Shown here: one piece after another, positions 18,972 through 50,713 of the stretch
How positions within the stretch are numbered: position 1 is the stretch's first letter
Layout of the letters: each line of letters opens with the position of its first letter
IMG/VR virus record: IMGVR_UViG_3300033146_003879
Span: 1 to 54,989 of that record
Strand: one strand, 5' to 3'
DNA length: 54,989 bases
From: a virus
Lineage: Duplodnaviria > Heunggongvirae > Uroviricota > Caudoviricetes
Made by a program: the position numbers and the translations under genes
Notes under the pieces: generated by a model
Told to the model about the DNA's origin: nothing
The model's input: the letters and a program-made list of their open reading frames with translations, nothing else
Databases searched by the model: none

Positions 18972-19991
18972 CTACTCCCCTTCAGGTTCATCTTCCTCAA
19001 TTATAGGGGGCATGTTTATGCCGGTTGTAAGCAGGTATCTGTCCAATGACCAGGATTTTGTTGTTGTCACGTCAGGTTTATTCATTGTTTCTGCTGCGAT
19101 GAACTCACCTAACTTTGAATCAATGTAATCTGCTTCATGTATTATCTGCGCCTCTTTGAACATCGGAGTGATGGCTGACCCCCACTCAAGTCTACCGTGA
19201 TGAGACACACATATGTGAGCTAGCAGGATACGCTTATCCTCACTTAATATGCGTCTAAATACCGCAGGTATATAAGTTGCTCCCATAACGAGGTGTCCAA
19301 GAAGAGCACCTGACTCACTTACCGATGAGGCGAGACCTATGTCGTCAATAGTGAATGACTTGCATTTCCCGATATCATGGAATAGTGCTCCGAAGATAAC
19401 GAGAGGGATATTCATGTTAGGTATCACTCGAGCTACCGCAAGCGCGTGCCTGGCAACCTGGACACTGTGTTCGAGCAAGCCTCTTACGTAGGCTTGATGA
19501 TACATAACCGCTGCAGGGACTGACTTGTATAGATCCCACAGTCTTGCTTTCTCCAGCGCCTCGATAACCTCTGCTGCGTTTGGCCACGTGTTGTCAGTAG
19601 TATTAGCTAAATCAATGAGTTGTTTTAACTCCTCGACAAGCTCTTCTTCAGACAACGTTGATGACTGTACTAGCTCGTCCTTTACCCCTTCTATCTGAGT
19701 GGGTGTTAAGAATTGCTCCGACTCTACGATGCATTGGAGCTCTGATTTGTACTCAGACACCTTGACTACAGCTTCAATAACTTTGCCGGCAGAGTAGTGC
19801 ACGAACACATCCTCTCTACCGTTCCATATCTTGAATGGTATCGATCCAGTAGCATCGCTAAGTACCCCACTCAAGTACGCTCCTCCCTTCCCGTTCTTCA
19901 TCTCACACGTCGCTAGCCGTACTCGTATACGTGCTAGGGATCCAGCTGTCAGTTGTTGCATTTGTGTAAATGGTGTGTGTTGTGTAATCAT
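18972..19991 (-). CDS. yhaM: YhaM/Cbf1-like 3'-5' exonuclease (OB fold + HD domain)
   Basis: OB fold (LSDATGSIPFKIW), HQAYVRGLLEHS, LFHDIGK, GHL, SHHGRLEWGS, HEADYIDSK; likely start MITQH at 19991. Confidence 0.9.
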   Translation of the reverse strand: MITQHTPFTQMQQLTAGSLARIRVRLATCEMKNGKGGAYLSGVLSDATGSIPFKIWNGREDVFVHYSAGKVIEAVVKVSEYKSELQCIVESEQFLTPTQIEGVKDELVQSSTLSEEELVEELKQLIDLANTTDNTWPNAAEVIEALEKARLWDLYKSVPAAVMYHQAYVRGLLEHSVQVARHALAVARVIPNMNIPLVIFGALFHDIGKCKSFTIDDIGLASSVSESGALLGHLVMGATYIPAVFRRILSEDKRILLAHICVSHHGRLEWGSAITPMFKEAQIIHEADYIDSKLGEFIAAETMNKPDVTTTKSWSLDRYLLTTGINMPPIIEEDEPEGE

Positions 19992-20439
19992 ACGATAGTT
20001 TCTCCTCTGGTTCTTCTCCCAGTACTTCATCTGCTAGGATGTTAGTTTCTCTTAGGTCGCGCACAACAATCACTTCGATCCTGTTGTTTCGCTCCCACCT
20101 CTCGATCATCTCGTCAGTTACTCGCACGAGCCCTATCGTGCGATTTGGTATCTTAACAATGGCTCCTATTCTCGCTCCGGTGACATAGGAGGTAAGTGCG
20201 TCGCGTACTGCTAGGTCACCTGCTTGTCCAACAACTCTTCCGTAATTCAATAATGTGAATTCTGTAGTGCGTAGTAGTTGCTCTATTCTTTCGGGAAACT
20301 CACGCGATACGGAAAATACAATATTTGGTCGAAAGGCAACACCTCTTAAAAAGCCCCTATCGCGCAACGGGTAATTACGTACTGCTTGTACGACTTTTCT
20401 TATCGCGTTCTGTGCAGACATGCTAATACTATGACTCAT
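19903..20439 (-). CDS. Last member of small-protein array 1, apparently extended past its C-terminal motif
   Basis: Internal TNILADEVL followed by GGA (20017-20019); the ORF then overlaps the yhaM-like gene. Confidence 0.55.
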   Translation of the reverse strand: MSHSISMSAQNAIRKVVQAVRNYPLRDRGFLRGVAFRPNIVFSVSREFPERIEQLLRTTEFTLLNYGRVVGQAGDLAVRDALTSYVTGARIGAIVKIPNRTIGLVRVTDEMIERWERNNRIEVIVVRDLRETNILADEVLGEEPEEKLSYDYTTHTIYTNATTDSWIPSTYTSTASDV

Positions 20440-20485
20440 ATTACCTCCGTAGGCGCACTATATTGTGTGTCTTGTTAATAGTTAA

Positions 20486-20905
20486 TTAAAGACTCTCGTC
20501 ATCTCGCAGGTTGTCTTCCATAACACTATGTGTCATTATGTTGTATGACCCACGCCCTAGGTAGTAGAACGACTTAACCAAGCTGGTATACCTCCAAATG
20601 CGTACTGTTCCTGCGGGTATCGATATTGATAAGGCGACCTTTCCGTGAGGCCTGTATCTGCGAATCGCAGTGATAAGAGGGACTCTTGATAGTGTCCCTG
20701 GAGCGGCTCTGGTGAGTATGAGCACGCCTGCTATCTTAGAGAGTACTGTTAGGAACTCCTCTGAGTTAGCATCTCCTATAAGATTAACATGAATAACAGG
20801 GTCGCCCTGATCGTCATCGTTTCGGTAATCCCGTAGAGCACGTGCTATCTTCTCTATTGCATTTGCATATGTCATCCTGTGTAGTTTTAACTCCTTCGAC
20901 TCCAT
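20486..20905 (-). CDS. Array 1 small protein, family Q (ends DNLRDDESL)
   Basis: Paralogue of 21300-21725; likely start MESKE. Confidence 0.75.
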   Translation of the reverse strand: MESKELKLHRMTYANAIEKIARALRDYRNDDDQGDPVIHVNLIGDANSEEFLTVLSKIAGVLILTRAAPGTLSRVPLITAIRRYRPHGKVALSISIPAGTVRIWRYTSLVKSFYYLGRGSYNIMTHSVMEDNLRDDESL

Positions 20906-20915
20906 GCTACCTTCC

Positions 20916-21290
20916 TTAGAGTTCTTCACTGTGCCTGATGTTGTTTGTTGCAATAGCATCATCCCTAACATCCGACACCAGCGATATGTGGTATGTGTAC
21001 ATACTAGACCTTGTGAGCGTGTTAAGGGTGCTGCTGTTTTCTATCCAATCAACACGTGTATCGCCACGCATGCCTTTCCGTACAACTAATGCGTGTTTAT
21101 TGTGAGCAATGTGTAGAACCTTGTCTGCCCATCCACGAAACCCGTCGCTCACGGCACCTAGTTTAGCTAGTGTGTTCTGTATATTCATGGATGCCTCTTC
21201 AGATACAGGGATAAGCACTTCATGATACCTCGGGTCCCAATCGGGGATATGTCTTACTAATTCTACAAACTCTTCTTCCGTAACTCTCAT
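20916..21290 (-). CDS. Array 1 small protein, family P (ends NNIRHSEEL)
   Basis: Paralogue of 21737-22111. Confidence 0.75.
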   Translation of the reverse strand: MRVTEEEFVELVRHIPDWDPRYHEVLIPVSEEASMNIQNTLAKLGAVSDGFRGWADKVLHIAHNKHALVVRKGMRGDTRVDWIENSSTLNTLTRSSMYTYHISLVSDVRDDAIATNNIRHSEEL

Positions 21291-21299
21291 AACACCCCC

Positions 21300-21725
21300 C
21301 TAGAGTTCACCGTTATTAACTACATTGTTATGCTTTAGTCCATACCCTCTCACTGTCAACACCGAGTCGTAATTAACGCGTAGCGATGTTATGGCACTAT
21401 CCTCAAAGGGTTCGATGCGCATTATGCTCCCATACACTGACACGTGAACAACTACTGCACCCGATTTACGATGCCTGCGCAGTGTCGCTGTTACCCCGCT
21501 TAACGCAGTAGTTCTGTCCTTCCTGCGTAGAGTATAAAATCGGGCTAGCCTGTTCGTAGCTTTTATAAAGGAGGGGTCTACAGGGTCACCTACTATGTTT
21601 GCGGCAATTGGTGTTGGGCCACCCTGACTTTCTTCCGCCGAGACTACCCGTCTCTTCCTATAAGCCTCGATCATCCTGTCCGCAGCCTCTTTATAAGTCA
21701 TTGTTCTCTTGGGGTAAGCTCTCAT
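21300..21725 (-). CDS. Array 1 small protein, family Q (ends NVVNNGEL)
   Basis: SD AGGAGG; paralogue of 20486-20905. Confidence 0.75.
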   Translation of the reverse strand: MRAYPKRTMTYKEAADRMIEAYRKRRVVSAEESQGGPTPIAANIVGDPVDPSFIKATNRLARFYTLRRKDRTTALSGVTATLRRHRKSGAVVVHVSVYGSIMRIEPFEDSAITSLRVNYDSVLTVRGYGLKHNNVVNNGEL

Positions 21726-21736
21726 TAGACCCTCCT

Positions 21737-22111
21737 TTAAATTGCCCCCTCGGGCGCCATGTTATCTCTTTCTGTTAGCCCTGTTATAGGGCTCTCACTG
21801 TACTCCCATCCGCTAACCTTATTGTTGAATATGGCCTTTGTTCCTAAGCTGCCTATTCGAAGAACCCGCGTCCTCCCGCCAAGGAATCCGCCTCGAGTCT
21901 CCCATCTAAAAACAATTGCATATTTATTCGCAACAGTATACGCATCATCCTCGCTACGATTACCTCTTCTTACAGCACCCATCTTCAGGAGTAACTCTTG
22001 CATTCGCAAGGACATCCTCTCTCCGTTCGGAACTACCACAGCCCAAGATCCATTCGGTGCCACCCATAACATGTGTACAAATCTTTTAAACTCTGTCTCT
22101 GTTACTATCAT
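21737..22111 (-). CDS. Array 1 small protein, family P (ends NMAPEGAI)
   Basis: SD GGAGG; paralogue of 20916-21290. Confidence 0.75.
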   Translation of the reverse strand: MIVTETEFKRFVHMLWVAPNGSWAVVVPNGERMSLRMQELLLKMGAVRRGNRSEDDAYTVANKYAIVFRWETRGGFLGGRTRVLRIGSLGTKAIFNNKVSGWEYSESPITGLTERDNMAPEGAI

Positions 22112-22122
22112 AGAATCCTCCG

Positions 22123-22512
22123 TTAAAGCGCATCCTTGTGGCGAACATTCACTGTAAGGAGGCTGCTGCCCCCTACATCAGTTATCCGTGTTTCTATGTA
22201 CTCGCTGCGATCTCCTCCTTCAAGCACGCTTGAGGTTGCATACGTAATCACCAACGCCCCCGCCTTGTGCGGGAATGGCCTATAGGATAGAAGTAACACC
22301 GGAGCATTACTATTGAGTATGTACTTTGCTCCCGACCCCCACGTTATATCCTGTGCAAACAGGGCTCCTTGCAATCGCTGGCTTGCTGCTGCTGATCGCG
22401 GGCGTATTACTAGTCGAACTATTCTCGGAGGGCTTGCATTATACCCCTCCCTTAAGTACTGCAGGTTACTGTCCGTTATTGTTTTAAGCCGAATATGCGT
22501 TACCAGTGTCAT
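22123..22512 (-). CDS. Array 1 small protein (ends NVRHKDAL)
   Basis: Shares P-x(3-4)-AS-x-x-[LI]Q-x-x-LF-x-x-x-[IV]-x-W core with neighbours; ATGA coupling. Confidence 0.75.
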   Translation of the reverse strand: MTLVTHIRLKTITDSNLQYLREGYNASPPRIVRLVIRPRSAAASQRLQGALFAQDITWGSGAKYILNSNAPVLLLSYRPFPHKAGALVITYATSSVLEGGDRSEYIETRITDVGGSSLLTVNVRHKDAL

Positions 22513-22892
22513 AAGTCACCCCCTTTGGTAAGGTTATCTTCGCACGTTATTATTGCATCTACTATCCAAGACTCCTCGAGAGGCACTATTGCATACCTGT
22601 CCGCAATGGCAACTTCCTCCGATCGTGCCCTTACCAGGTATGGGCTTTTCGTTGGATCTGACGGAACCCCTAGTACGAGACATGTTCGTAGGCGTGTATC
22701 ATTAAGTCTAGTGTCATACCCCTTCTTCTCAAGGGTTATAGATTTTCTACGGAGAGCACGCAATATTCTATCGTCCGCCACCTTATCTCTCGGACGTATT
22801 ATCAAGATGCCTCCACTAGCGTTACCACTTGAGTTATCAATGAACCTTGATACTATAGCAAGCAAACCCTTGCTGGTAATTACTTTTGTCAT
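22509..22892 (-). CDS. Array 1 small protein (ends NLTKGGDL)
   Basis: ATGA overlaps at both ends. Confidence 0.75.
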   Translation of the reverse strand: MTKVITSKGLLAIVSRFIDNSSGNASGGILIIRPRDKVADDRILRALRRKSITLEKKGYDTRLNDTRLRTCLVLGVPSDPTKSPYLVRARSEEVAIADRYAIVPLEESWIVDAIITCEDNLTKGGDL

Positions 22893-23317
22893 AGCTCTGC
22901 TCCTTGTGGCATGTTGTGGTTATTAGACCAAGGTAGTGCGTCTACTATACCAGATTCAACATAAGTGATACCGCTAGTCCCTTTATTCTCTGCTAGCCTA
23001 GCATCTAAATCGCGATCTGTGAAGTACAAGTTAGCGATGTCTATAACGACCGTTCGCTGAGACTTGGTCTCGTACTTATAGGGGCTTATTACTAAGTCCC
23101 GGTCTGTGAAGTTAACTGTTGCGCCTAGGCTACTCCAAACTATCCCTTCTGAGAACAGCATATCCTTCACCTTAGCAGACGCAGTCGCGCTTCTAGGTAG
23201 TATCACGATCCTGTGCTCTAGTCTTCCTTCTCCGGGATAACCTCTTGCTATCTCACGGAGCTCTCTAATTGTTTTTCGTAGGTAATTCAAGGCCTCGTAC
23301 CTCGTCTCTATCGTCAT
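22889..23317 (-). CDS. Array 1 small protein (ends NMPQGAEL)
   Basis: Family core ILPRSATASAKVKDMLFSEGIVW. Confidence 0.75.
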   Translation of the reverse strand: MTIETRYEALNYLRKTIRELREIARGYPGEGRLEHRIVILPRSATASAKVKDMLFSEGIVWSSLGATVNFTDRDLVISPYKYETKSQRTVVIDIANLYFTDRDLDARLAENKGTSGITYVESGIVDALPWSNNHNMPQGAEL

Positions 23318-23682
23318 AGCTCACCTTCCCCTACAATATGACCACTCAGATCAGGAGTCACGTCGGTCATTCCTGTTCTGTAGTAGCTACTTACATCATC
23401 CATGTCACCCGTCCACCTACTTGCGTATAACAGGTTTGTAGTTGTTCGGGTAGGGTGAACTCTAAGTATTAAATAAGGGTGTCTTGTATTGCGTACCACA
23501 GGATCTCCATTTGAACCATTCCAGCACACGTTTATTGTGAATAACACTTCTTGTATCCGAGCGGAGGCTCGGGCGTCTGTTGGTGATAGTATAATAGCGT
23601 GCCTTTCGTTTATACGACCATCCCTCTTGGCCGCACGCTCATTACTAATCAATCCTACCAGTTTCGTCTTCGTCCATCTCAT
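23314..23682 (-). CDS. Array 1 small protein (ends HIVGEGEL)
   Basis: Family core LSPTDARASARIQEVLFTINVCW. Confidence 0.75.
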   Translation of the reverse strand: MRWTKTKLVGLISNERAAKRDGRINERHAIILSPTDARASARIQEVLFTINVCWNGSNGDPVVRNTRHPYLILRVHPTRTTTNLLYASRWTGDMDDVSSYYRTGMTDVTPDLSGHIVGEGEL

Positions 23683-24068
23683 AAGGTGCCTCCATTTTGC
23701 ACATTACACACACTTCTATCAATTAATATGTCAGTTATGTGTGTAGTTGAGTAATACTCACTGTAAGTCGCAAGTAGTGAGTTTGTTTGAGCGTATCTAA
23801 TAACAACCCGTGGAACCCTACGTGTTGGTGTCACGGTCGTCGATAACACTAGGAGTTCCGCGGCTACGTGTTGGACGGAGTGTCTGTCTTTTACGTCATT
23901 GCTCCAAGCTGCGCCCAATGTGAATAATGCTGTTTGCATCCGTTCGCAGGCGGCTTCGCAAGACGGTTCAAGCAATAACTTTTGGTCTTGAGGAGTCTCT
24001 CCTTTTACCTTTCTTCTCATGTGCTCCTCCAGAATATGAGATAGCTCAGAGACTGTTACCCTTGTCAT
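23679..24068 (-). CDS. Array 1 small protein (ends NVQNGGTL)
   Basis: Family core LEPSCEAACERMQTALFTLGAAW. Confidence 0.75.
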   Translation of the reverse strand: MTRVTVSELSHILEEHMRRKVKGETPQDQKLLLEPSCEAACERMQTALFTLGAAWSNDVKDRHSVQHVAAELLVLSTTVTPTRRVPRVVIRYAQTNSLLATYSEYYSTTHITDILIDRSVCNVQNGGTL

Positions 24069-24433
24069 AGGACACCTCCATTCAGGTTATCTTCTTTATG
24101 AACTAGCGTGACTCCTGTAATTCCAGTAATTCCAGTAGCAATACATGCCTCTAATCCACGCAGAGTATCAGCGTAACCTAAACTACCTTCATTTAGTGAG
24201 GTTACTGCAATAACTAGGTGTGGTTTTTCTGTGTGCTTAACAAGGCTTTCCGGTTCGTTACCCGTGGTTTTGTTGGGACTGTCGGACTTCCAGAACACGC
24301 CGATTGAGAACAGTGCCTTTTGGATCTCACTCGAATCTATCTGTGTCTTAGGAGATAGTACTATGCCGATGTTATCTGCCTCGCCGCTTCTGTTAAATAG
24401 TAAAGAACGCAGCTTCCTCTTTGTTACTTTCAT
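24065..24433 (-). CDS. Array 1 small protein (ends NLNGGVL)
   Basis: Family core LSPKTQIDSSEIQKALFSIGVFW. Confidence 0.75.
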   Translation of the reverse strand: MKVTKRKLRSLLFNRSGEADNIGIVLSPKTQIDSSEIQKALFSIGVFWKSDSPNKTTGNEPESLVKHTEKPHLVIAVTSLNEGSLGYADTLRGLEACIATGITGITGVTLVHKEDNLNGGVL

Positions 24434-24801
24434 ATCTCCTCCTTCGGTATGTTGACAACAACTCTTTCTGGGTATGCTCCTGTAATGCCTGTGTCTAAGT
24501 GGTCGTCGTGTAGTCTATGTGTATCGTCGCAGTATCCGATCTGGTGAGGACCTTGTATTCTCACATATACAGTTAGATGGTTGCGGTTAGTGAACATAGG
24601 CTTCTTCCCTACTCTTTCCTGATAAACCCCTCCAGGCAACCACCCTACACCTAACGAAAATAACAACAACTGTATTCGCTCCGACTCTTTCTCAGAGCTA
24701 GGAGAGAACAACAATAGTCTGCCTGGCGGAACACCCTTGGTAGCTTTGTCTCTGTGTTCTTTGTCAAGCAATTCCGTAAGTTTATTAATAGATATTATCA
24801 T
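24430..24801 (-). CDS. Array 1 small protein (ends NIPKEEI)
   Basis: Family core FSPSSEKESERIQLLLFSLGVGW. Confidence 0.75.
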   Translation of the reverse strand: MIISINKLTELLDKEHRDKATKGVPPGRLLLFSPSSEKESERIQLLLFSLGVGWLPGGVYQERVGKKPMFTNRNHLTVYVRIQGPHQIGYCDDTHRLHDDHLDTGITGAYPERVVVNIPKEEI

Positions 24802-25181
24802 AACTCTTCCCCATCTAATATATTGATACTTGGGATATGTCCAATAATTCCCGTTACCCCCGTGTCAACAATGGTGTCGTCAAGCGCCGGTTCCGCAGCT
24901 ACTTCCTCGGGGGCCTTTTTAGAGTGGTAGAGTGTTGGTGTTGCCGACTCTCCGCCTGTACTAAAGTCTCTACCTACTAGTAAACTAGGGGAGCTTGTAT
25001 GTGATATTTTACTACCCTCCGGACCAGTCCACTCTATGCCTAGGTCAAACAGTGCTTCTTGCAACTGGGATGATGCTTTTTTTGTGGACGTATGAAAAAG
25101 GAGGAGTCTCCTTCCTCTTAAAACACGGTTACTCTTTTCACCTAAAATGATATTCCTTAGGCAACTTCTCGATATTAACAT
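24798..25181 (-). CDS. Array 1 first small protein (ends NILDGEEL)
   Basis: Family core ASSQLQEALFDLGIEW; likely start MLISR at 25181. Confidence 0.75.
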   Translation of the reverse strand: MLISRSCLRNIILGEKSNRVLRGRRLLLFHTSTKKASSQLQEALFDLGIEWTGPEGSKISHTSSPSLLVGRDFSTGGESATPTLYHSKKAPEEVAAEPALDDTIVDTGVTGIIGHIPSINILDGEEL

Positions 25182-25233: not shown

Positions 25234-25257
25234 CTCTATGTTCTTATACCATATTTG
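25234..25257 (-). promoter_or_regulatory. Class 1 motif heading array 1
   Basis: 24 bp identical to 231-254. Confidence 0.7.
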
Positions 25258-25258
25258 A

Positions 25259-39645: not shown

Positions 39646-39676
39646 GTTCTTATACCACATTTGATAATGCTATAAT
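39646..39676. promoter_or_regulatory. Back-to-back promoters: minus class 1 CAAATGTGGTATAAGAAC (39646-39663) and plus TGCTATAAT (39668-39676)
   Basis: Both motifs recur elsewhere; they face divergent genes. Confidence 0.65.
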
Positions 39677-40815: not shown

Positions 40816-43800
40816 GTGTCACAAAAGTTATATTCAATTGGATACGGTTCTACGCAAGATCAGATAGAGGATTCTATGAGCAAAGGGTTCCGCAATGTCG
40901 AGTTTAACGACATGTACGACGGGTCTACTTATAAAATGGACAACATTTCATTTAAGCGTAAAGCTGATGCTAACTCTCCTGAGGTGTTCAAGGAAGCCTT
41001 ACTTGGTAATAGAAGTCTCCTTGCTCAAGTTCATGGTGATATATATCGGTATGATAAAGATGGTAAGAAGGATAGGGTTGCGGCTAACGTGCATATTGCT
41101 AGTGTTCCTCAGATGCTTGACTCTCGTGGTACGTTTGTTGTGCGGGGTAGTGATTATAATATCATTAACCAGCTTCGTAAGAACTCTGCACCATACATCA
41201 CACGTGGTAAAACCGATACCGACATTAAGGCTACATTTAACCTTGCAAAGGGTCGTAACTTCCATATAGAAATGAATCCAGCAGATTCTATGTTCTATGT
41301 AAAGATAGGTACATCGAGTGTGGTTATAAAGGCGCTCGCTGAAGTATTGGATATCACTAGATATGATATGGTTAAGGCTATTGGCGAGGATATGGTGAAG
41401 CTTAATTGGGACAATGTATCTCCGTCGCTCGTGCGGTCTAACCTTGTGAAACTATATAAGAAGGTGTTTGAGTATAAACACGATAACCCTTCTAATTTTA
41501 CAGACCATGAATTGAAGACACTCTTGTCAGAGTACTTCAAGACAACGGTTATGGATCCGCATACTACGAAGCTTTTATATAAGCAGGAGATGTCAAGCGT
41601 TGATAAGGCAGCACTACTCAAGATACTGTCCGAGTACATGAAGATCTATAAGAAAGAAAAAGCTCCGCATAACCAAGATGAGTTATATTATCAGAGAGTT
41701 ATGACACCAAATCTGTTGTTTGAAGATCGTATCCATAAGACGGCCCCTACAATAAACAACACAATAAAGTTCAATCTTGCAAGAGCAAAGTCCGCTGATG
41801 ATTACAAGAAAGTATTTAGTAATATATACAGCAAGCCTCTTATATCGATGGTAGCAGGGTCTGATCTCGCACGCATTGATCCGCAGTATAACCCTCTCGG
41901 CGTAATGGTGACTCCGTCATCTATAACCCCTCTCGGTATGGGCGGCGTCAATGATTCTATGGCTATACGTGACTCACAACGAGACATACATGTTTCGTCT
42001 ATGGGAGTTATAGATCCACTCGTATCACCACAAGGTGGTAATGTTGGTATCTTGCTTCGTACTACTGACAACTTCAAGGTTGATGAGAAGGGTCGTGTTC
42101 ATCTCAAAGTTCGTGATAAGAAAGGGAAGGTAGGCCACACATCACTGGCCTCTCTTAAAGACAAGTATCTTGCACTACCTGATGTTCGACCAGGAACAAA
42201 AAAGAGAACGGTGTCTGCTGTACACGACGGGGAGATCGTGAATGTGTCTAAGGATAAGATAACACATTACTTCCCAAATGGCCCGGAAGATACACTTAAC
42301 TCACTCGACAGATTGTTTCCTATGGCGAACGCTGTACAAGGTAACAGGAACTTTATGAGTACGAGACAGATAACGCAAAGTCTCCCTTTGGCATACAAAG
42401 AGCTCCCGTACATACAAACGGAATCGTCTACTGGTAAGAATATGTATGAGAAAGTACGTGAGGATCTCGAGTCTCTTATGCCGTTACGATCTCCCGTTGA
42501 CGGAGTCGTTGAAAGTGTTAAGGATGGTGTAATAACTATAAAAGACGATGACGGAAAGAAGCACGAAGTGAAGTATGCTCGACATCTTCCTCTCGCAACG
42601 AATACCGGTATTCACCAAATACCAACTGTTCATCGTGAAGAGCGTGTCAAGAAACGTCAGATTATACTTAAAGATAACTACACGGTCGATGGTAAAATCG
42701 CATTTGGAGTGAACCTAAAGACGGCGTTCATGCCGTATAAGGGGTATAACGCAGAGGATGCTGTTGTAATATCAGAGACAGCGTCAAAGAAATTGATGTC
42801 TGTACATTACTACAAGTATGACATACTTACTGGTGATGAGAACATTATTGGTAAGAAGTCTTTCCTTAATAAATTCCCCGATAAGTTTCAGCCTGCACAA
42901 GTAGCAAACATAGAAGCTAACGGCATAATAACTAAAAATACACGTATAAATTATGGTGATCCGCTGGTGCTTGCCCTGGCTAAGGTTCTACCTGATGAGT
43001 CCCTGATGAAGATTGGAAGAATAAGTAAGGATATTGTAGTTACACTTGCGGACTCGTCTCTTGTGTACGACCATCACGCAATCGGTGAGGTTGTTGAGAT
43101 ATCTGAACGATCGAAGGTGCTTACGGTAACAGTAAAAACCCTTGAGAGGGCGGTTGTTGGTGATAAGGTTGCTGGTATGTACGGAAATAAGGGGGTTGTA
43201 TCTGTAGTTATCCCTGATGATAAAATGATGCGTAATGAGGAAGGGGATGTTGTTGACGTTATTTACGCAGCATCCGCCGTACCTAGTCGTATGAATCCTG
43301 CGCAAATACATGAACAGGCACTATCGAAGATCGTAAAGAAGAAAGGATTGAAGCCGTATATGTTTCAGCCTCTAACGAACCCTGGCGGTAAGCCGCTTGA
43401 TGAGTTTGTCGAAAAAGAGATGAAGAAACACGGTGTTAGTGATAAAGAGTTCCTTATTGATCCTATAACCGGGAAGAAGACAGACAGGCCTGTTGCGTCC
43501 GGTCAGATGTACACACTCAAATTGCTTAAGGGTGATAAAGATGCTGCAGCGCGTGGCCTCGGTCCTGCATACACATCAAACAAGCAGCCGGCTAAGGGCG
43601 GCTCGGAGGGAGCGAAAGCTATTGGGCAAGCAGAGTTCTACGCACTTGTTGCACATAATGCAAGAGCTACTATGGCAGACTTCAGTTCAATAAAAGGACA
43701 GCACAATGCAGATTACTGGCGTAAGTCTTTGTACGGTGCCCCACCAACTCCTGTTGGAGAATCATTTGCGTTTAAGCGATTCAAAGCAAACCTTACATCG

Positions 43801-46800
43801 GCGGGTTCAGTATTTAACGAAACAAAGGATGGGTATCAACTACTTCCTTTGACAGATAAAGTAACGAATCAACTTGCCGGGCATCGTAAAGTGAAGACTC
43901 CTGCGTTGTTGCGCAGTAAGACCCTTGAGCCTATTAAGAATGGGTTGTATGATAGGGCAATCACTGGTGGTGTTGACGGTACACTATGGTCTAAGATAGA
44001 ACTAGAAGATGGCATGGTGTCACCAATGATAGAGGACTATGTTCGTATCTTACTCGGTATGAAGAAAGCTGATATCAGAAAGTGGCAAGCGGAGCACACT
44101 ACTGCAGAAATGCGAAAGGAGCTTAACAAGATTGACGTATCTTCCAGGATACGCGAACTAAAGGCAAAGGGTAAGAATTCTGGTAAATTAACAAACACCG
44201 AGATAAAGTTGCTGCGTTTCTTACAGAACATAAAAGACAAGGGTACTAACCTTGCTGATCTTATAATAACATCGCTTCCTGTTCCTCCTCCTATCTATAG
44301 ACCGATGACGCAGCTCGGAGATGGTAGCATCCAGATGGCAGACTCTAACCACTTCTATAAGGATATCCTTATTGCTAATGAGGGACTGAAAGATGTTAAG
44401 GGGCTTAAGTCGGTATCAGGTGAGGTTAAAGACGAACTCATCTACAATGTCCATGCTCTCGTAGGAACGGAGAAAACAAAAAATAGAACACTCGCCAATA
44501 AAGGAACAAAAAGCATACTTGAAGCTATCGGCGGTGTTGGTTCTCCGAAGTACGGTTTTGTTCACGCTAATCTTGTTAAAAAGAATCAGGATTTGGCGGG
44601 GCGTGCACGTATTATCCCTAATGCAGATCTCGATATGGATGAAGTTGGTATACCTACGTCTATGGCGTGGGAGCTGTATAGCCCCTTCATAAAGAAGAGT
44701 CTTGTTAGTTCTGGTATGACGCCTATAGATGCAGCTAAAGCAATAACACACAAGTCTACTCCTGCGAAGCGTGCTCTTGTTTCCGAAGTTGATAAGAGAC
44801 CAGTGCTCATAAATAGAGCGCCGACGTTACATAGGTTTGGTATACTTTCGATGAAGCCTCGGCTTGTATCTGGAAATAGTATGCAGGTGTCTATGTTCCA
44901 CACCGCTCCGTTTAATGCTGATTTCGATGGAGATGCGATGCAGGTCCATGTACCGGTAACGCAAGCTGCTATTAGAGAAGCAGACAAGATGCGCATGTCG
45001 CAGAATCTGTTAGGTGACGTGTCTGCAGATCAGCTTATTATGGCATTAACACCAGAGACTATTATTGGATTCTATGATAAGGCGAGGTATGACCGGTCAA
45101 CTGTCGTACGTGATCTTAAGAAGATACTCCCGGCCAATGTTAGTCTTCCTGCTACGTATGACAAGAAGGGGTTAAAACAGTTATCGTTGGGTATTGCGAA
45201 GTCAGGTGCTGCTGATATAGCAGGGATATTCCAGCGCGTGAAAGTGCTCGGCGATGAGTACGCAACACAATCTGGTCGTACTGTTGGTGTTGAAGATGTT
45301 TCTGGTGCAGGCATGAGGAAAGAGAAGGACGCGATACTTGGTAAGTATAAGAAGAAGCTAAGTAGGGTAAAGATGGGGACACCTGAGTATGCGGTTGAAC
45401 TTGAGTCCGCGCAGAAGGAAGTGCAGAGCCTTGCAAAGAAACACCCGGGAGATGTTGGTGAGATGCTACGTGCCGGAGCTAAGGGGAGTGACAACCAGAT
45501 ATCAGGTATGATACTCTCGCCGGTGATTGCGTATAACCCGCACGACCCGATACGCACAGCGCGGATGACTGAGAGCTCATATAGTGAAGGCCTTAACTTT
45601 AACGATTTCTGGAACCAGGTGGCAAAGGCTCGTACGGACATGGTGTCTACTGCTATGAGTGTTGCTGTTCCTGGATCTCTTGCTAAGCTCATGAATGCAG
45701 CGGTTAACAAGATGGTTATATCAGAGTTCGATTGTGAGACAATGGACGGAGTGTTTGTTGACCCATCTACTGACGACGTCCGCGGGTCACTGCTTGCTGA
45801 GAAAGTAGGTATATTTAATAGAAATACTATTATCAATACACTCAACGAAGCTGCTATTAGTAAAAATAAGAAGATAAAGATACGTTCTCCTCAAACATGC
45901 CAGTCTACTGAAGGTGTGTGTGCTCGATGTTACGGCGCTGATGCTATGGGTGTGTTGTATAAGGTAGGAGTAAATGTAGGCGTCCGCGTTGCTCAAGGTG
46001 TGTCTGAGCCTATTGCTCAGATGGCACTTGATAGTAAACACGGAGGAAGATCTATTACGAAAGATATTGGGCAGGGAGGCCTCACGACAATTACCAACAT
46101 ATTTAGTTCTGATGCTACAAAACCTGGTATGGCTATCGTTGCGAAAGAGGATGGTACTGTTAAATCAACATCCGTGCTACCTTCTGGTGCGACAATTATA
46201 AAGATGGTAGACGGAGCATCTTACACGGCGGCTCCAGATGTCACGGTGAAGGTGCATGAAGGGTCGTCTGTAGCTCGAGGTGACTCTATCACCAGCGGAG
46301 TAATCCCATTCACTGATGTTATTGAAGCTAAGGGTATTGTTGCAGGTAGAGCAGCGCTTGCCGGACAGCTTCGGGAGTCGCTTGATGAGAACGGTAGGCA
46401 CTTGTCTACAAGAGTACATGATCTCATCGGTAAAGCGGCGGCAAACTACGTAACACTTATGGCTGACCTCGATAGTCACCCTGCTGGGACAACTATAACA
46501 TATAGTCAACTGAAGCAATCCCTCAAGGATCACAGTTATCCGAAAAAATTAGCGCTTGTTACTGAAGGTATGCAATTAGGTGAGGAATTCGGTGACCTCT
46601 CTGCGGGAACAATTATCACGAAGAAAGAAGCGCGTAAGATCGCAGCTGCTAAAACGATACCAGAAACCGATAAGAAGTTTATCCGTATCGTTGAGAATAA
46701 AGTCCCGTTTGAGTGGGTAGCTCGTACTCTCTATACTGCAGGACTTGCTGATGATGACTGGATGCATCACATCGCAGCCCGATACATTAAAAAAGAACTC

Positions 46801-46914
46801 ACCTCGGCAACAGCAGAAGGTGATGTTTCTAAAAAGAAAACACTGAGTCCGGTAAATGTGTGGATGCAAGGCAAGGCTATGAAGAACGATCCCGATACAC
46901 CTTACTACGAATAA
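40816..46914 (+). CDS. rpoBC: Single-polypeptide fused beta-beta' multisubunit-type DNA-directed RNA polymerase
   Basis: Beta motifs GYNAED, GDKVAGMYGNKGVVS, VPSRMN and GQMYTLKL. In the same ORF follow beta' motifs LPVPPPIYRP, NRAPTLHR, NADFDGD (44914-44934), GAKG, CQSTEGVCARCYG and the trigger-loop AQGVSEPIAQMALDSKH. Confidence 0.97.
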   Translation: MSQKLYSIGYGSTQDQIEDSMSKGFRNVEFNDMYDGSTYKMDNISFKRKADANSPEVFKEALLGNRSLLAQVHGDIYRYDKDGKKDRVAANVHIASVPQMLDSRGTFVVRGSDYNIINQLRKNSAPYITRGKTDTDIKATFNLAKGRNFHIEMNPADSMFYVKIGTSSVVIKALAEVLDITRYDMVKAIGEDMVKLNWDNVSPSLVRSNLVKLYKKVFEYKHDNPSNFTDHELKTLLSEYFKTTVMDPHTTKLLYKQEMSSVDKAALLKILSEYMKIYKKEKAPHNQDELYYQRVMTPNLLFEDRIHKTAPTINNTIKFNLARAKSADDYKKVFSNIYSKPLISMVAGSDLARIDPQYNPLGVMVTPSSITPLGMGGVNDSMAIRDSQRDIHVSSMGVIDPLVSPQGGNVGILLRTTDNFKVDEKGRVHLKVRDKKGKVGHTSLASLKDKYLALPDVRPGTKKRTVSAVHDGEIVNVSKDKITHYFPNGPEDTLNSLDRLFPMANAVQGNRNFMSTRQITQSLPLAYKELPYIQTESSTGKNMYEKVREDLESLMPLRSPVDGVVESVKDGVITIKDDDGKKHEVKYARHLPLATNTGIHQIPTVHREERVKKRQIILKDNYTVDGKIAFGVNLKTAFMPYKGYNAEDAVVISETASKKLMSVHYYKYDILTGDENIIGKKSFLNKFPDKFQPAQVANIEANGIITKNTRINYGDPLVLALAKVLPDESLMKIGRISKDIVVTLADSSLVYDHHAIGEVVEISERSKVLTVTVKTLERAVVGDKVAGMYGNKGVVSVVIPDDKMMRNEEGDVVDVIYAASAVPSRMNPAQIHEQALSKIVKKKGLKPYMFQPLTNPGGKPLDEFVEKEMKKHGVSDKEFLIDPITGKKTDRPVASGQMYTLKLLKGDKDAAARGLGPAYTSNKQPAKGGSEGAKAIGQAEFYALVAHNARATMADFSSIKGQHNADYWRKSLYGAPPTPVGESFAFKRFKANLTSAGSVFNETKDGYQLLPLTDKVTNQLAGHRKVKTPALLRSKTLEPIKNGLYDRAITGGVDGTLWSKIELEDGMVSPMIEDYVRILLGMKKADIRKWQAEHTTAEMRKELNKIDVSSRIRELKAKGKNSGKLTNTEIKLLRFLQNIKDKGTNLADLIITSLPVPPPIYRPMTQLGDGSIQMADSNHFYKDILIANEGLKDVKGLKSVSGEVKDELIYNVHALVGTEKTKNRTLANKGTKSILEAIGGVGSPKYGFVHANLVKKNQDLAGRARIIPNADLDMDEVGIPTSMAWELYSPFIKKSLVSSGMTPIDAAKAITHKSTPAKRALVSEVDKRPVLINRAPTLHRFGILSMKPRLVSGNSMQVSMFHTAPFNADFDGDAMQVHVPVTQAAIREADKMRMSQNLLGDVSADQLIMALTPETIIGFYDKARYDRSTVVRDLKKILPANVSLPATYDKKGLKQLSLGIAKSGAADIAGIFQRVKVLGDEYATQSGRTVGVEDVSGAGMRKEKDAILGKYKKKLSRVKMGTPEYAVELESAQKEVQSLAKKHPGDVGEMLRAGAKGSDNQISGMILSPVIAYNPHDPIRTARMTESSYSEGLNFNDFWNQVAKARTDMVSTAMSVAVPGSLAKLMNAAVNKMVISEFDCETMDGVFVDPSTDDVRGSLLAEKVGIFNRNTIINTLNEAAISKNKKIKIRSPQTCQSTEGVCARCYGADAMGVLYKVGVNVGVRVAQGVSEPIAQMALDSKHGGRSITKDIGQGGLTTITNIFSSDATKPGMAIVAKEDGTVKSTSVLPSGATIIKMVDGASYTAAPDVTVKVHEGSSVARGDSITSGVIPFTDVIEAKGIVAGRAALAGQLRESLDENGRHLSTRVHDLIGKAAANYVTLMADLDSHPAGTTITYSQLKQSLKDHSYPKKLALVTEGMQLGEEFGDLSAGTIITKKEARKIAAAKTIPETDKKFIRIVENKVPFEWVARTLYTAGLADDDWMHHIAARYIKKELTSATAEGDVSKKKTLSPVNVWMQGKAMKNDPDTPYYE

Positions 46915-46934
46915 GGGGAGACTTAGATCTCCCC
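46915..46934. terminator. Hairpin between convergent genes (GGGGAGA-6-TCTCCCC)
   Basis: 7 bp stem directly after the RNAP stop; followed by TTATT on the minus strand. Confidence 0.55.
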
Positions 46935-47241
46935 AGGCTTAGATAGGTTGCTTGTGCGCTCGAACAAATGGTTATATAGATAGTCTGAATTTATACGGTC
47001 TACACTCCCATGGCCTAAGTTTCGTAGTTCCGTCTCTACAGCAAAGAACTCGTATAAACTCTTAACTATAACAAAAACATATGCGTACTTATCATCTCGT
47101 TGTTGAGTTGTATGTGTTATCCGCGGATTGTATCAGCTTTGCTAAAGTATCTAGGTTTAGCATTGCACCTGTGTGTGCCTTATCATGGTCTCCTGCCGCT
47201 TTGCGGAGTTCCTCATCAACAAACTCATTTGATACTTTCAT
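46923..47241 (-). pseudogene. Frameshifted last member of array 2 (ends NLSKPGEI)
   Basis: 47241-47092 encodes 49 aa ending in TGA. The +1 frame continues as DKYAYVFVIVKSLYEFFAVETELRNLGHG...NLSKPGEI*, homologous to 47950-48279. Confidence 0.7.
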
Positions 47242-47591
47242 AACTCCCCCTCACATAAGTTTATTTCGATATGTCTAACCAGCACAGCTTCTATCGGTAC
47301 GTACTGTGCGTTCGCGTAGATAGCGTCATTTATGGTCGAGAACCAGCACATGTAGGGGGGTTTTACTTCTGGGCTGTTGTTAAGTTCTATAGCTACACCT
47401 AGTGCTGTTGCAGCGCGGGCTGTAGCGTTACTGTACCGATGCCTTTCGTTTGCAATTCCTAGTGAGTGAAGTGCTCTTTCAACTGCTCTGAAATGGGCTT
47501 CTGTGCGCGTCCTAATAAGAAGCTTACCTCCGCCTCTCATGCGTTTCTGCTCCAGCATATCCATAAATCTATCTGCATCTATATATATCAT
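47238..47591 (-). CDS. Array 2 small protein, family A (ends NLCEGEL)
   Basis: Likely start MIYID; core FRAVERALHSLG. Confidence 0.75.
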   Translation of the reverse strand: MIYIDADRFMDMLEQKRMRGGGKLLIRTRTEAHFRAVERALHSLGIANERHRYSNATARAATALGVAIELNNSPEVKPPYMCWFSTINDAIYANAQYVPIEAVLVRHIEINLCEGEL

Positions 47592-47953
47592 TATAAGTCT
47601 CCTTCGTGTTTGATGTTGTTTATGTAGAGTAATGACTCTATGGGTATTCCGGGGTCTGTCTGAGACCACCATAAAGTGCAGTATAAAGTGCGGTATGCAC
47701 CAGACTCTGTGTACAGGTGCTCGTGTATTCTAACACCAACTGCTACTGCTCTTAGTTGAGCGTCTCTAGTGAAATACTTATTGGTGCTTCCTAGAATATG
47801 TAAGCGGCGTAGGGCAGCTCCAATATCTAGTACTTCATCCATGCTTTTTACCTTCACAAGTAGTGTGTGCTCACCTTCTTTTGCAGCTTTCTTTATTCTG
47901 TACAGAAGTTTATCTGAGTTTATATTCATGCGTTTATCTGAGTTTATAGTCAT
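47591..47953 (-). CDS. Array 2 small protein, family A (ends NIKHEGDL)
   Basis: Paralogue of neighbours (AVAVGV, IPIESLL). Confidence 0.75.
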   Translation of the reverse strand: MTINSDKRMNINSDKLLYRIKKAAKEGEHTLLVKVKSMDEVLDIGAALRRLHILGSTNKYFTRDAQLRAVAVGVRIHEHLYTESGAYRTLYCTLWWSQTDPGIPIESLLYINNIKHEGDL

Positions 47954-48279
47954 AACTCCCCCGGCTTACAGATATTGCCAATGCGCTCCGTAACAGCCGA
48001 AATAGCAATGTAACATCTATCAGGAGATCCCCCTGACGAGAAACCTAGGGGGTGTCTACCTTGCCCATCACTTATTTTTAAGTTTAGTCCGACAGCAACT
48101 GCGATGTCGGCGACCTTATCACTCGGCTCACCTAAATCATTACCATGTCCTAAGTCCTGTAACGCATCTTTTACCGCGCGAAACTCCACTATTCCGTTTG
48201 TGTAAACAAACAGGTACTTGTGCTTCTTTACCTCCGCATTCTCTATAAAGGTAGAGAGTCTTGCTCGTGATATCTTCAT
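47950..48279 (-). CDS. Array 2 small protein, family A (ends NICKPGEL)
   Basis: Likely start MKISR; core EFRAVKDALQDLG. Confidence 0.75.
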   Translation of the reverse strand: MKISRARLSTFIENAEVKKHKYLFVYTNGIVEFRAVKDALQDLGHGNDLGEPSDKVADIAVAVGLNLKISDGQGRHPLGFSSGGSPDRCYIAISAVTERIGNICKPGEL

Positions 48280-48482
48280 AATCCTTCCTCCTTGCAAGCG
48301 TTGTTTATTTTAGATCCTGCGTTTAGCATATTAATGTAATAGGGGTGTAGGTACGTCAATGTGTTAGTGGTAACTGTGCGGAATACTCTTATCAATATAG
48401 GATAACCAAGGTTACTTATAGCGCGTGGAATATTCTCGGTAAGGCGTTTGTCCGATATTATAATGAATCTCTGCCACTGCAC
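48276..48482 (-). CDS. Array 2 short/degenerate member (ends NACKEEGL)
   Basis: About half the usual length; the expected ATGA junction at 48458-48461 reads ATAA. Confidence 0.5.
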   Translation of the reverse strand: MQWQRFIIISDKRLTENIPRAISNLGYPILIRVFRTVTTNTLTYLHPYYINMLNAGSKINNACKEEGL

Positions 48483-48826
48483 ATATTTGCTCTTATTTCC
48501 TTGAAGTCTGATAGGTTGCGATAGTACTTATTTCGCATACCTCCTCCCGAATATGCTATTCTGTAGTTGCTCATATCATACTTGTTCTTACCTTGTCGGA
48601 TGGGTAGTAGTGAGACACCTACAGATACTATAGGTTTTTCCGTACCATGAGGTGTAACATGCATGCTTGGGATAGGGCTTTCGCCGGGGTTGCACCCGAT
48701 AGAAACAAGAGCGTATTCTGCGGATCGGATCTCATTCAGGTTTGATATATAGATGAACAAGTAAGTATCTCCTCGGTCGAGCGCCCTTGTTATAGCGCCA
48801 ATAAGAAGCCTCTTTGATATTATCAT
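48458..48826 (-). CDS. Array 2 small protein, family A (ends NMCSGRDSL)
   Basis: Likely start MIISK; core EIRSAEYALVSIG. Confidence 0.75.
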   Translation of the reverse strand: MIISKRLLIGAITRALDRGDTYLFIYISNLNEIRSAEYALVSIGCNPGESPIPSMHVTPHGTEKPIVSVGVSLLPIRQGKNKYDMSNYRIAYSGGGMRNKYYRNLSDFKEIRANMCSGRDSL

Positions 48827-49311
48827 AATTCCCCCTCTTCTGCCATGTTTGTATCCAAGCTTACCTGCGTGCCGTATCCAACCAACCATTCCTTTAGCCA
48901 GCAGGCGCCTATGTTCGATACGCTTCCTGAATATCCTCCAGGGTGAACAACGCTCTCAAAGTCGTACCTGTTGTTATTCCCTTCGTACGTGCGCACAATA
49001 AGTATTTTCCCCGCCTCTGCTATCATCCTATTATTTACGTACGCTCTATTTGCGCTAAGGTGGTATTCAGCGTCAGACAGCGCAGCGTCATCCATTGCCC
49101 TCGAGTAGGTGTCGAAGAATCCACCGCGGCGGAATTCCTTGTGAAGGTCTTCCTTGACGGATCTCTTGCGGCGGAGGGATTCCATGCTAGAATATTCTTC
49201 AGACAGTACTTCTAATTGACGAAAGTACGCTACTGGTTTTATCCTCACGATCCTTTCTCCTTTATTTAACGTTCTCATAACTCTCCTTTCTCCTTCATTT
49301 AACGGTCTCAT
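48823..49311 (-). CDS. Array 2 small protein, family B (ends NMAEEGEL)
   Basis: Close paralogue of 49616-50014 (GGF[FY]DTYSR, W-x-x-EWL). Confidence 0.8.
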   Translation of the reverse strand: MRPLNEGERRVMRTLNKGERIVRIKPVAYFRQLEVLSEEYSSMESLRRKRSVKEDLHKEFRRGGFFDTYSRAMDDAALSDAEYHLSANRAYVNNRMIAEAGKILIVRTYEGNNNRYDFESVVHPGGYSGSVSNIGACWLKEWLVGYGTQVSLDTNMAEEGEL

Positions 49312-49319
49312 AACTCTCC
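49251..49319. repeat. 33 bp tandem duplication of the SD/start region
   Basis: Gives MRPLNEGERRV/MRTLNKGERIV, with two GGAGAGTTATG starts. Confidence 0.8.
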
Positions 49320-49619
49320 AGCATTCACTATGTGCCCTTCAGTATTGCGCCATATGCGGTGCACCCAGTCGGGTATCCACATGAAACCCTCACCCCCGCG
49401 CTCTGTGATCATACGGTACTCGTATGGGGGATCTGATACAAGCTCTACATATATGACTCTCCCTGCGTAGGCCAACATTGCACGTAGGAATAGCGCCTCT
49501 CGTATAGGTATCTTTGAATTTGGGAATACTTGGGTACGAATCACGTTTGCTCCTTCTTTGAGAGCAGGAAACTTCCCCATGAAGTAGGCGTGACTTTTTA
49601 CCCTTACCTTAGTCTTCAT
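49308..49619 (-). CDS. Array 2 small protein, family B (ends HIVNAGEL)
   Basis: Likely start MKTKV; core RAMLAYAGRVIYV...WIPDWV. Confidence 0.75.
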   Translation of the reverse strand: MKTKVRVKSHAYFMGKFPALKEGANVIRTQVFPNSKIPIREALFLRAMLAYAGRVIYVELVSDPPYEYRMITERGGEGFMWIPDWVHRIWRNTEGHIVNAGEL

Positions 49620-50014
49620 AACTCCCCCTCCTTGACTACGTTCTTCGTAATATGTGTATCCGACCCGTCCTCTATGAGCCATTCCCTTATCCAAGCCGCT
49701 CCTACCTGGTGTTCGAAGGAGGTTTTGTTTAGTAGTGGCTGGTGTACGTAACTTGTGTAGTCATATTGCTTGTTGTCTCCTGTATAATGCGTTACTACGA
49801 TAGTTTTCCCAGCGAACTCTAACATCTTTGTGTTGACAAAGATACGATCAGCGCTGTCATTAGACCTTCGAGATTCCCCGTCATTTGTTTCGGTACGCCT
49901 CGAGTAGGTGTCATAAAACCCTCCACGCGTAACATCCTCTGAGAGTTCTCTGAGCCTATTGAAATAAGTCCTAGACTGCACTCGTACTTTCTTGTAGCCT
50001 TTCGGTAGTTTCAT
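49616..50014 (-). CDS. Array 2 small protein, family B (ends NVVKEGEL)
   Basis: Core TKMLEFAGKTIVV...WIREWL. Confidence 0.8.
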   Translation of the reverse strand: MKLPKGYKKVRVQSRTYFNRLRELSEDVTRGGFYDTYSRRTETNDGESRRSNDSADRIFVNTKMLEFAGKTIVVTHYTGDNKQYDYTSYVHQPLLNKTSFEHQVGAAWIREWLIEDGSDTHITKNVVKEGEL

Positions 50015-50310
50015 AGATCTCCTCCTTTAGTGTTGTCTCGTCGCAATCCTCTTGTTAGCCAGTCTTTATGCCAGAACCAGTTGCCTGAAGCCCCGCCTCT
50101 ATATGCGTACCTGTCGCTATCACTTAGTTTCTCAACCACTACCTCGGTTCCTGCAAGATTTATCATAGCTCTGTTTAAGAATACGCCCCCTGCGGTGGCG
50201 CCTGCACTGAATGAGAACCCCTCTTCCTGCTCCTCTACATCAGGAGAGTCATGTATAAGTCTGTGGAATCGGGACTTGCTGATAACCATCATCTTGACTC
50301 GCGTCTTCAT
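50011..50310 (-). CDS. Array 2 small protein, family B (ends DNTKGGDL)
   Basis: Likely start MKTRV; core RAMINLAGTEVVV...WHKDWL. Confidence 0.75.
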   Translation of the reverse strand: MKTRVKMMVISKSRFHRLIHDSPDVEEQEEGFSFSAGATAGGVFLNRAMINLAGTEVVVEKLSDSDRYAYRGGASGNWFWHKDWLTRGLRRDNTKGGDL

Positions 50311-50323
50311 ATTAGCTTTCCTC

Positions 50324-50713
50324 CTAGAGTTCACAATTTCCGTTTATGTTATTTAGAGCAATATCCTCAAGCCACATGCCGTGCATGTAATATGACAAAC
50401 CGGGTAGTTCGACCGCTTCCCATAACAAACTTGTCGGGGTAGGCTGGTCAGCCCCTTCTGCGTAATGTAACCGCCTACGCAATAGTACCGTATCTCCGGC
50501 CATACTGACAATGCTCTTGTGTAAGAATACTGAGTCTTCTCTTGTAATATTCTCTGTTGCCTCTCCTGAGAAGATAGGTAACTTCACCTTATACATGTGC
50601 GCGGTCTCCTCTGTCGTCGATTCTCGAGCTATTAACTCCTCAAAGAAGACTTTACTCTTACCTCGTTTTACTACCAATCTTGGTAGATCTCGGGTTGTTG
50701 TTGCTTTGTGCAT
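50324..50713 (-). CDS. Array 2 first small protein, family B (ends NINGNCEL)
   Basis: Core KSIVSMAGDTVLL...MHGMWL; AGGAGGAGGAG SD. Confidence 0.75.
   Translation of the reverse strand: MHKATTTRDLPRLVVKRGKSKVFFEELIARESTTEETAHMYKVKLPIFSGEATENITREDSVFLHKSIVSMAGDTVLLRRRLHYAEGADQPTPTSLLWEAVELPGLSYYMHGMWLEDIALNNINGNCEL

Follow-up and report, generated by a model that had tools for sequence, protein, structure and literature searches.

To our knowledge, very few systems have been described in which polymorphic phage proteins carry short terminal address peptides, and these are chiefly from phage T4. The capsid targeting sequence (CTS) of T4 IPI, IPII, IPIII, and Alt, internal proteins with polymorphic loci in T4-like phages, is an N-terminal peptide of ~10 residues that is cleaved by the prohead protease. 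It is carried on late virion proteins, unrelated and fast evolving small proteins encoded in variable clusters, and is an address, not part of the fold. Encapsulin cargo-loading peptides are GSL-rich C-terminal motifs that are joined by a flexible linker to unrelated cargo families and are received by one surface of an HK97-fold shell. The ClpX-binding tail of SspB and the C-terminal PRANC/F-box of poxvirus ankyrin proteins likewise combine a variable body with a conserved C-terminal docking element. In SspB, a variable target-binding body, a flexible linker, and a docking end (LRVVK) tie many proteins to one machine; PRANC is a folded domain. Here we describe a C-terminal tail shared by small proteins of several families in an uncultured phage, known from a single viral contig of 182,989 bp (IMG/VR record IMGVR_UViG_3300033146_003879). 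The window is the first 55 kb of this contig (54,989 nucleotides) and contains two arrays of tail-bearing genes; coordinates marked "genome" refer to the whole contig and all others to the window. No account of this phage or of its C-terminal motif was found in the literature.

The genes of array 1 (12 genes) and array 2 (11 genes) end in [N/H]-hydrophobic-x(1-6)-[L/I], with two degenerate tails (NT.. and NA..). The consensus is Asn(-7)-[I/V/L/M](-6)-x-polar-[G/E]-Gly-[Glu/Asp]-[Leu/Ile]-COOH. Outside the window, the rest of the contig was found to have seven more motif-ending genes, for a total of 30 of ~235 genes. The expression [NH][ILVM].{1,6}[LIV]$ matches 25 of the 28 members tabulated when it was scored, which are paralogues and hence not independent, compared to a single match among 181 other genes and a frequency of 2% in random internal 10-mers, so the C-terminal enrichment called for by the first-pass annotation of the window is present. 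All 28 tails terminate in L, I, or V; the penultimate residue is E, D, or S in 20, and the antepenultimate residue is G in 17; position -4 is polar in 16 of 19 tails, and there is no conserved central hydrophobic residue. Because paralogues are not independent, similarity was also scored between different superfamilies only. The last eight residues gave a mean BLOSUM62 score of +5.4, compared to -7.0 for control C termini and -7.3 for residues -16 to -9 of the same proteins. When one member was drawn per superfamily, the observed score was reached by 0.025% of random quartets of control C termini.

The tail could in principle be a nucleotide-level by-product of Shine-Dalgarno (SD) and ATGA coupling, of a promoter or processing signal, or of the ends of recombination cassettes. 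Fourteen of the 23 array genes in the window share an ATGA overlap with the start of the gene that follows, and the G/E-rich codons of the tail (GGnGAr) resemble an SD sequence. An unrelated gene at 28834-29241 (plus strand) ends in DILGGEI with an ATGA overlap; it has G-G-E-I without the Asn-hydrophobic pair and shows what coupling alone can yield. The nucleotide information in the tails is strictly three-periodic (AAY, NTN, xAx, GGN, GAN, YTN), with codon positions 1 and 2 informative and third positions almost free (0.07 to 0.2 bit). Asn, Gly, and Glu codons follow genome usage, and the terminal Leu or Ile codon is TTA, CTA, or ATA where the ATGA overlap demands NNA and CTT, CTC, ATT, or ATC elsewhere. 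Uncoupled genes keep the Asn-hydrophobic pair, the acidic residue, and the terminal Leu: the whole motif is present where the SD lies after the stop (stops at 22123, 21737, 21300, and 20916) and where there is no downstream partner, namely, in genome 144658-145059 between two terminator hairpins, in the gene ending at genome 143492 before a transfer-messenger RNA (tmRNA) gene, and at 46923 at a terminator. Among 17 other ATGA-coupled genes of the genome, only a lone family A member at genome 155527 has the motif, the rest having varied endings, and 30 coupled small genes of an array in Vibrio phage D69, whose RNA polymerase is distantly related, end in varied residues. The free third positions, the genome-like codon usage, and the uncoupled carriers together lead us to reject coupling and cassette ends, and a nucleotide-level origin is scarcely credible. 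The earlier proposal that the tail is a feature of the proteins thus holds, and these patterns firmly support its description as a modular C-terminal linear motif.

BLAST, family hidden Markov models (HMMs), and hhalign place the carriers in four superfamilies that have no sequence relationship to one another: A/A'/B, C, D/D', and E. Superfamily A consists of A (eight genes plus the gene at genome 155527), A' (six genes in array 2), and B (two genes). C comprises two genes and the extended gene A1_13, D and D' have five and three genes, and E has three plus one. The best profile alignments between superfamilies cover only the last 11 to 22 residues. The N termini are alike across A, B, and D (M-x-[IV]-[TSK]...), a likeness not common to C and E. 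An AlphaFold2 model of family A (protein A1_04, family alignment; mean predicted local distance difference test [pLDDT] score, 87.9; predicted template modeling [pTM] score, 0.80) is a small alpha/beta domain with its last strand ending at residue 115; the tail beyond it has no secondary structure (pLDDT of 59 for residues 121 to 129). The family D model (A2_03; pLDDT, 65.7; pTM, 0.62) is mostly beta and SH3-like, and residues 118 to 132 have pLDDT values of <50 and no secondary structure. The models thus place the motif in a flexible tail, 6 to 9 residues past the predicted fold, and do so for at least two scaffolds. That dissimilar families carry the motif, as the first-pass annotation stated, is borne out by the sequence comparisons, and two of the families differ in predicted fold.

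No convincing known fold was found for either model: Foldseek returned nothing below an E value of 0.001, and VIA Z scores were at most 4.5. The family D model matches SH3, Mib, and PsaE structures, all of them weakly (Z of 4.1 at most); the family A model has no solved look-alike and weakly resembles uncharacterized phage proteins only. Pfam and PHROGs scans of the 23 array proteins of the window found nothing, no Pfam family covers the family A core domain, and a word-indexed search of 5.8 billion proteins with the family A and D profiles returned this genome's own proteins only. When the family A profile was run exhaustively with HMMER against 1.84 billion representative proteins, outside relatives matched only the core segment, a strand followed by a helix (S..IQ..LF.LG..W). 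This core occurs as two to five tandem repeats in uncharacterized bacterial proteins and also in a few small proteins, and none of these outside relatives has the tail motif. One such repeat protein (L011 6001-6888) is encoded in a chromosome region with ankyrin-repeat and Lcl_C genes.

Array 1 contains 12 minus-strand genes, running from 25181 down to 20486, every one of which ends in the motif. It is preceded by a promoter-like motif and followed by a further family C gene:

25243-25254, minus strand: promoter-like motif ATATGGTATAAG before array 1, one of 16 genome copies
24798-25181, minus strand: A1_01, superfamily A, tail NILDGEEL, ATGA overlap with A1_02
24430-24801, minus strand: A1_02, superfamily A, tail NIPKEEI
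24065-24433, minus strand: A1_03, superfamily A, tail NLNGGVL
23679-24068, minus strand: A1_04, superfamily A, tail NVQNGGTL, modeled protein of family A
23314-23682, minus strand: A1_05, superfamily A, tail HIVGEGEL
22889-23317, minus strand: A1_06, superfamily A, tail NMPQGAEL
22509-22892, minus strand: A1_07, superfamily A, tail NLTKGGDL
22123-22512, minus strand: A1_08, superfamily A, tail NVRHKDAL, stop TAA, SD 3' of the stop
21737-22111, minus strand: A1_09, family B (grouped with A when profiles are compared), tail NMAPEGAI, following gene not overlapped
21300-21725, minus strand: A1_10, family C, tail NVVNNGEL, following gene not overlapped
20916-21290, minus strand: A1_11, family B, tail NIRHSEEL, following gene not overlapped
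20486-20905, minus strand: A1_12, family C, tail NLRDDESL, then a 46-nucleotide spacer
19903-20439, minus strand: A1_13, family C, motif internal (ETNILADEVL, last codon at 20020-22), then 38 more residues

In A1_13, the codon after that of the motif Leu (CTG) is GGA, a single base change from TGA, and the 38-residue extension shares DNA with the 5' end of the next gene, which is read in another frame. Loss of a stop codon would be the simplest reading. That next gene, encoded right after array 1 (18972-20030, minus strand), specifies an OB-fold and HD-domain protein, which may be YhaM-like.

Array 2 contains 11 minus-strand genes, running from 50713 down to 46923, all of which end in the motif or a degenerate form of it:

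50867-50894, minus strand: perfect sigma-70 consensus, TTGACA-16-TATAAT, directly upstream of array 2
50857-50868, minus strand: promoter-like motif ATATGGTATAAG before array 2, one of 16 genome copies
50324-50713, minus strand: A2_01, family D, tail NINGNCEL, stop TAG, following gene not overlapped
50011-50310, minus strand: A2_02, family D, tail NTKGGDL, with Thr at the hydrophobic place
49616-50014, minus strand: A2_03, family D, tail NVVKEGEL, modeled protein of family D
49308-49619, minus strand: A2_04, family D, tail HIVNAGEL
48823-49311, minus strand: A2_05, family D, tail NMAEEGEL
48458-48826, minus strand: A2_06, family A' (superfamily A), tail NMCSGRDSL, stop TAA
48276-48482, minus strand: A2_07, short (68 amino acids) decayed member without ATG, degenerate tail NACKEEGL
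47950-48279, minus strand: A2_08, family A', tail NICKPGEL
47591-47953, minus strand: A2_09, family A', tail NIKHEGDL
47238-47591, minus strand: A2_10, family A', tail NLCEGEL
46923-47241, minus strand: A2_11, frameshifted family A' member
46915-46934, minus strand: terminator hairpin GGGGAGATCTAAGTCTCCCC with a T-rich run, closing array 2 and overlapping its last codons

All of the C termini that the first-pass annotation had listed for the two arrays were reproduced on the minus strand, at the stops it had given, by an open reading frame (ORF) listing and a codon-by-codon printout of the 3' ends. The last gene of array 2 is frameshifted: an N-terminal piece at 47092-47241 ends in TGA TAA, and a C-terminal piece in another frame ends in NLSKPGEI at 46923. 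Both A2_07 and A2_11 are decaying members. The annotated range also took in 19903-20439 (A1_13), in which the motif is internal and followed by 38 residues. Two arrays of about 23 proteins are indeed present, but carriers are not confined to them, and the claim that the motif is absent outside the arrays holds for the window but fails for the genome, where the motif ends a further seven genes and is internal to an eighth:

Genome 155527-155907: lone family A gene, end SNIVEGGNL, ATGA coupled
Genome 143492-145059: third cluster, three family-D-like (D') genes with ends HIVKECSL, DNIGSV, and DNLGGI
Genome 140215-142249: family E, three genes with ends NINQDGGL, NIPPLGGVL, and NNLAQEGRLI
Genome 140934-141482, minus strand: fourth family E member, internal DNMRDDYI, then a 60-residue near-pure Asp tail with three Trp, ending in DDDDVDW

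The motif is therefore at the exact C terminus in 30 genes and internal in two, A1_13 and the fourth family E member. The poly-Asp tail of the latter could be a mimic of DNA or of the tail of single-stranded DNA-binding (SSB) proteins. A remnant ORF of 24 codons (ending in TVGNIGNV) lies at genome ~144277-144351 (minus strand), just downstream of a TGGTATAAG promoter copy, and duplicates solely the C-terminal end of the neighboring D' gene and the junction. Since it copies the 3' end alone, partial 3'-end duplications do occur, and we propose that such duplication may be a route by which the tail spreads. A tmRNA gene (genome 143148-143488, minus strand; Rfam RF00023, 173.6 bits; tag peptide AKTELIAA) lies directly after the third cluster. 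On the other side of a terminator hairpin, the cluster adjoins a gene at genome 145205-146068 (minus strand) for an unclassified radical-S-adenosylmethionine (radical-SAM) protein with CxxxCxxC, whose best NCBIfam rows are far below the cutoffs; the tail motif has no Ser/Cys-rich core.

The first-pass annotation had also stated that both arrays start at the same promoter motif. This is correct in that ATATGGTATAAG is found at 25243-25254 and at 50857-50868, but the motif is not array specific. The form AT(A/G)TGGTATAAG has 16 copies in the genome, all on the minus strand and with a conserved (A/T)TG ~4 nucleotides downstream:

240-251, 11747-11758, 13258-13269, 25243-25254, 39649-39660, and 50857-50868, minus strand: AT(A/G)TGGTATAAG copies in the window, with 10 more in the genome

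These copies probably constitute one promoter class that would drive far more than the arrays. One TGGTATAAG copy precedes a gene at genome 93078-93998 whose product ends in DDDLPF, an ending typical of SSB proteins. Together with the sigma-70 consensus at array 2, the position of this copy hints at early or middle expression.

The genome is 88% complete by CheckV and 45% G+C, and the phage is very novel. Megablast against known phages gave no match, and no transfer RNA genes were found in the contig. A 2,032-residue single-chain beta-beta' RNA polymerase with Pfam Rpb2_6 and Rpb1 domains is encoded at 40816-46914 (plus strand); it has just 28% identity with its counterparts in Vibrio phages D69, D181, and D148 and Salmonella phage Arash. 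A second very long ORF of 2,306 residues (genome 116830-123750, plus strand) resembles the RNA polymerase ORF in size and position. Metagenomes contain many single-chain relatives of the RNA polymerase of ~2,000 residues that are up to 61% identical; the closer ones are on short metagenomic contigs only, and none was found among viral contigs. In the fragment with the nearest relative (60% identical RNA polymerase), gene order is kept on the far side of array 2, and array 2 itself is missing. Neither a carrier-family member nor a motif-ending small gene is present in three loci from the best two RNA polymerase relatives (60%, ~46%, and ~46%) or in GenBank OR846602. In these searches, the carrier families and their motif were encountered in this genome alone. 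The absence of arrays from these related contigs indicates that the arrays are lineage-specific accessory loci. Scans of 40 neighboring or promoter-linked proteins against Pfam, PHROGs, and NCBIfam identified only a DNA polymerase A, the HD/OB protein, a terminase, and the radical-SAM protein.

Our best explanation, to which we would give somewhat less than an even chance, is that the tail is a portable C-terminal short linear motif, a common docking or address tag that one partner reads via the free end. The tail would have persisted, or have spread through recombination where genes join, on ~30 fast-evolving accessory proteins, whose variable bodies would do different jobs or bind different targets, and the common tail with its free carboxyl end would plug all carriers into one shared phage or host receptor. 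The presence of the motif exactly at the C terminus of 30 genes, with one of the two exceptions (A1_13) looking like stop loss, points to a need for the free end, which a single receptor would read. Several observations weigh on the other side. No receptor candidate emerged, and the genome has no Pfam-detectable AAA+, ClpP, PDZ, or beta-clamp gene. The Asn is 4 to 8 residues before the terminal residue (exactly 7 in 19 of 28 tails), a loose spacing for a peptide ligand. A single metagenomic genome without known orthologues supplies all of the evidence, so that purifying selection is deduced from paralogues that are not independent. The family D model is moderately confident, "different folds" rests on two families (A and D), and all families may share a deep common ancestry. 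Asn-dependent self-cleavage, prohead-protease sites, and quorum-peptide precursors were considered and dropped for want of support, the carriers being folded domains of ~120 residues that lack signal peptides. GG ends of the ubiquitin or Pup type were also dropped; GG is not constant.

A C-terminal degron, by which ClpXP, ClpAP, Lon, FtsH, or an unrecognized phage protease would destroy all carriers jointly and at a set time, would suit a flexible tail that has a hydrophobic last residue and needs a free end. The layout of an Asn-hydrophobic pair and a terminal Leu loosely recalls the two-part ssrA tag, and the tmRNA shows that the phage engages the host tagging and proteolysis machinery. Bacterial C-degrons end in LAA, VAA, or other nonpolar residues, however, and an acidic penultimate residue abolishes ssrA recognition. 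The tails do not have the three nonpolar last residues of ssrA, their penultimate residue is usually Glu or Asp, and Pfam finds neither a ClpP nor an AAA+ gene in the phage, so we regard a degron as unlikely. Signals for virion loading, in which the tail would bind the procapsid interior, scaffold, or portal and a library of small proteins would be packaged and injected, fit the pattern of T4 internal proteins and encapsulin cargo, one terminal peptide on unrelated fast-evolving small proteins. We nevertheless think this quite improbable: the perfect sigma-70 promoter at array 2 and the TGGTATAAG copy before the DDDLPF gene suggest early or middle rather than late expression, and no protease site is evident.

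The two remaining alternatives require no receptor. If the families descended from one ancestor, the tail could be an inherited structural relic, the best-conserved end of the protein and perhaps a strand packed against the domain or an adjacent subunit, with no tag function. Part of the sharing is indeed plain homology, because A, A', and B are one superfamily; the similar N termini of A, B, and D and the tolerance of an internal motif in one family C and one family E member are also in line with it. Against this stand the hhalign comparison, in which A, C, D, and E have nothing in common but the tail, and the between-family similarity in residues -7 to 0 with none in -16 to -9. The family A and D models also differ in predicted secondary-structure makeup, and the tail is modeled as unpacked in both. 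We consider a relic about as improbable as virion loading. Slightly less probable again is a nascent peptide that acts in cis, its last eight residues slowing release or aiding reinitiation at the next gene while in the ribosome at termination; the motif would then have no role once the protein is released. This would account for conservation that is in amino acids, confined beside the stop codon, and independent of fold, and for the location of most carriers in tightly coupled arrays. It does not account for carriers that keep the motif without a downstream partner, and a distance from Asn to stop that varies by up to four residues is a poor fit to an exit-tunnel mechanism. All three stop codons are used among the carriers.

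If, as we favor, one receptor reads the tail, a single pulldown would give a handle on 30 orphan proteins and name a hub on which the phage depends, and the tail would be a ready-made tag for sending foreign proteins to that hub. Rather doubtful, and to be held well apart from the docking tag in general, is a private address code in which one receptor reads N-hydrophobic-x3-G-E-L-COOH and assembles or recruits ~30 interchangeable effector modules (13% of genes). That receptor could be one of the two candidate single-chain RNA polymerases, a host hub, or a proteolytic machine. If such a code exists, bacterial viruses would have an equivalent of the poxvirus PRANC/F-box adaptor families, with the arrays as its fast-changing component that is specific to the strain. 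One eight-residue peptide on 30 proteins of four unrelated families, ~1 gene in 8, is an unusually large and clean case, and it illustrates that shared terminal motifs can bring order to the "dark matter" genes of large phages when searches by sequence and by fold fail.

Compared with other C-terminal or short docking motifs, the tails differ from the beta-clamp motif (QL[SD]LF or QLxLxL) in that Asn or His replaces Gln and the central hydrophobic residue is not conserved; no clamp gene was detected in the phage. They are mildly acidic and end in Leu or Ile, unlike the SSB-type tip (DDDIPF), which in this genome has its likeness in the separate gene at genome 93078-93998. Ligands of PDZ domains and tail-specific proteases would have a hydrophobic last residue with a free carboxylate and a PDZ-bearing partner; the tails end in L, I, or V, and PF13180 has no match in the genome, though most of the phage proteins escape Pfam altogether. 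Like the T4 CTS, the tail is a short terminal peptide that lies outside the fold and is carried by unrelated small proteins in variable clusters. It differs from the CTS in being at the extreme C terminus, in its sequence, and in having no evident cleavage site: neither the N-terminal position nor the L/I-x-E prohead-protease site of the CTS is found, and the promoter context hints at early or middle rather than late genes. The architecture of encapsulin cargo, a C-terminal peptide on a disordered linker in unrelated families, is reproduced here with a different sequence motif, and a link to the capsid is by analogy only. SspB and the PRANC/F-box proteins have no sequence similarity to the tail and are alike in the joining of a variable body to a conserved C-terminal docking element. 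Sequence, terminus, or demonstrated partner the tail shares with none of the T4 CTS, encapsulin peptides, and SspB tails; what it shares with them is their logic.

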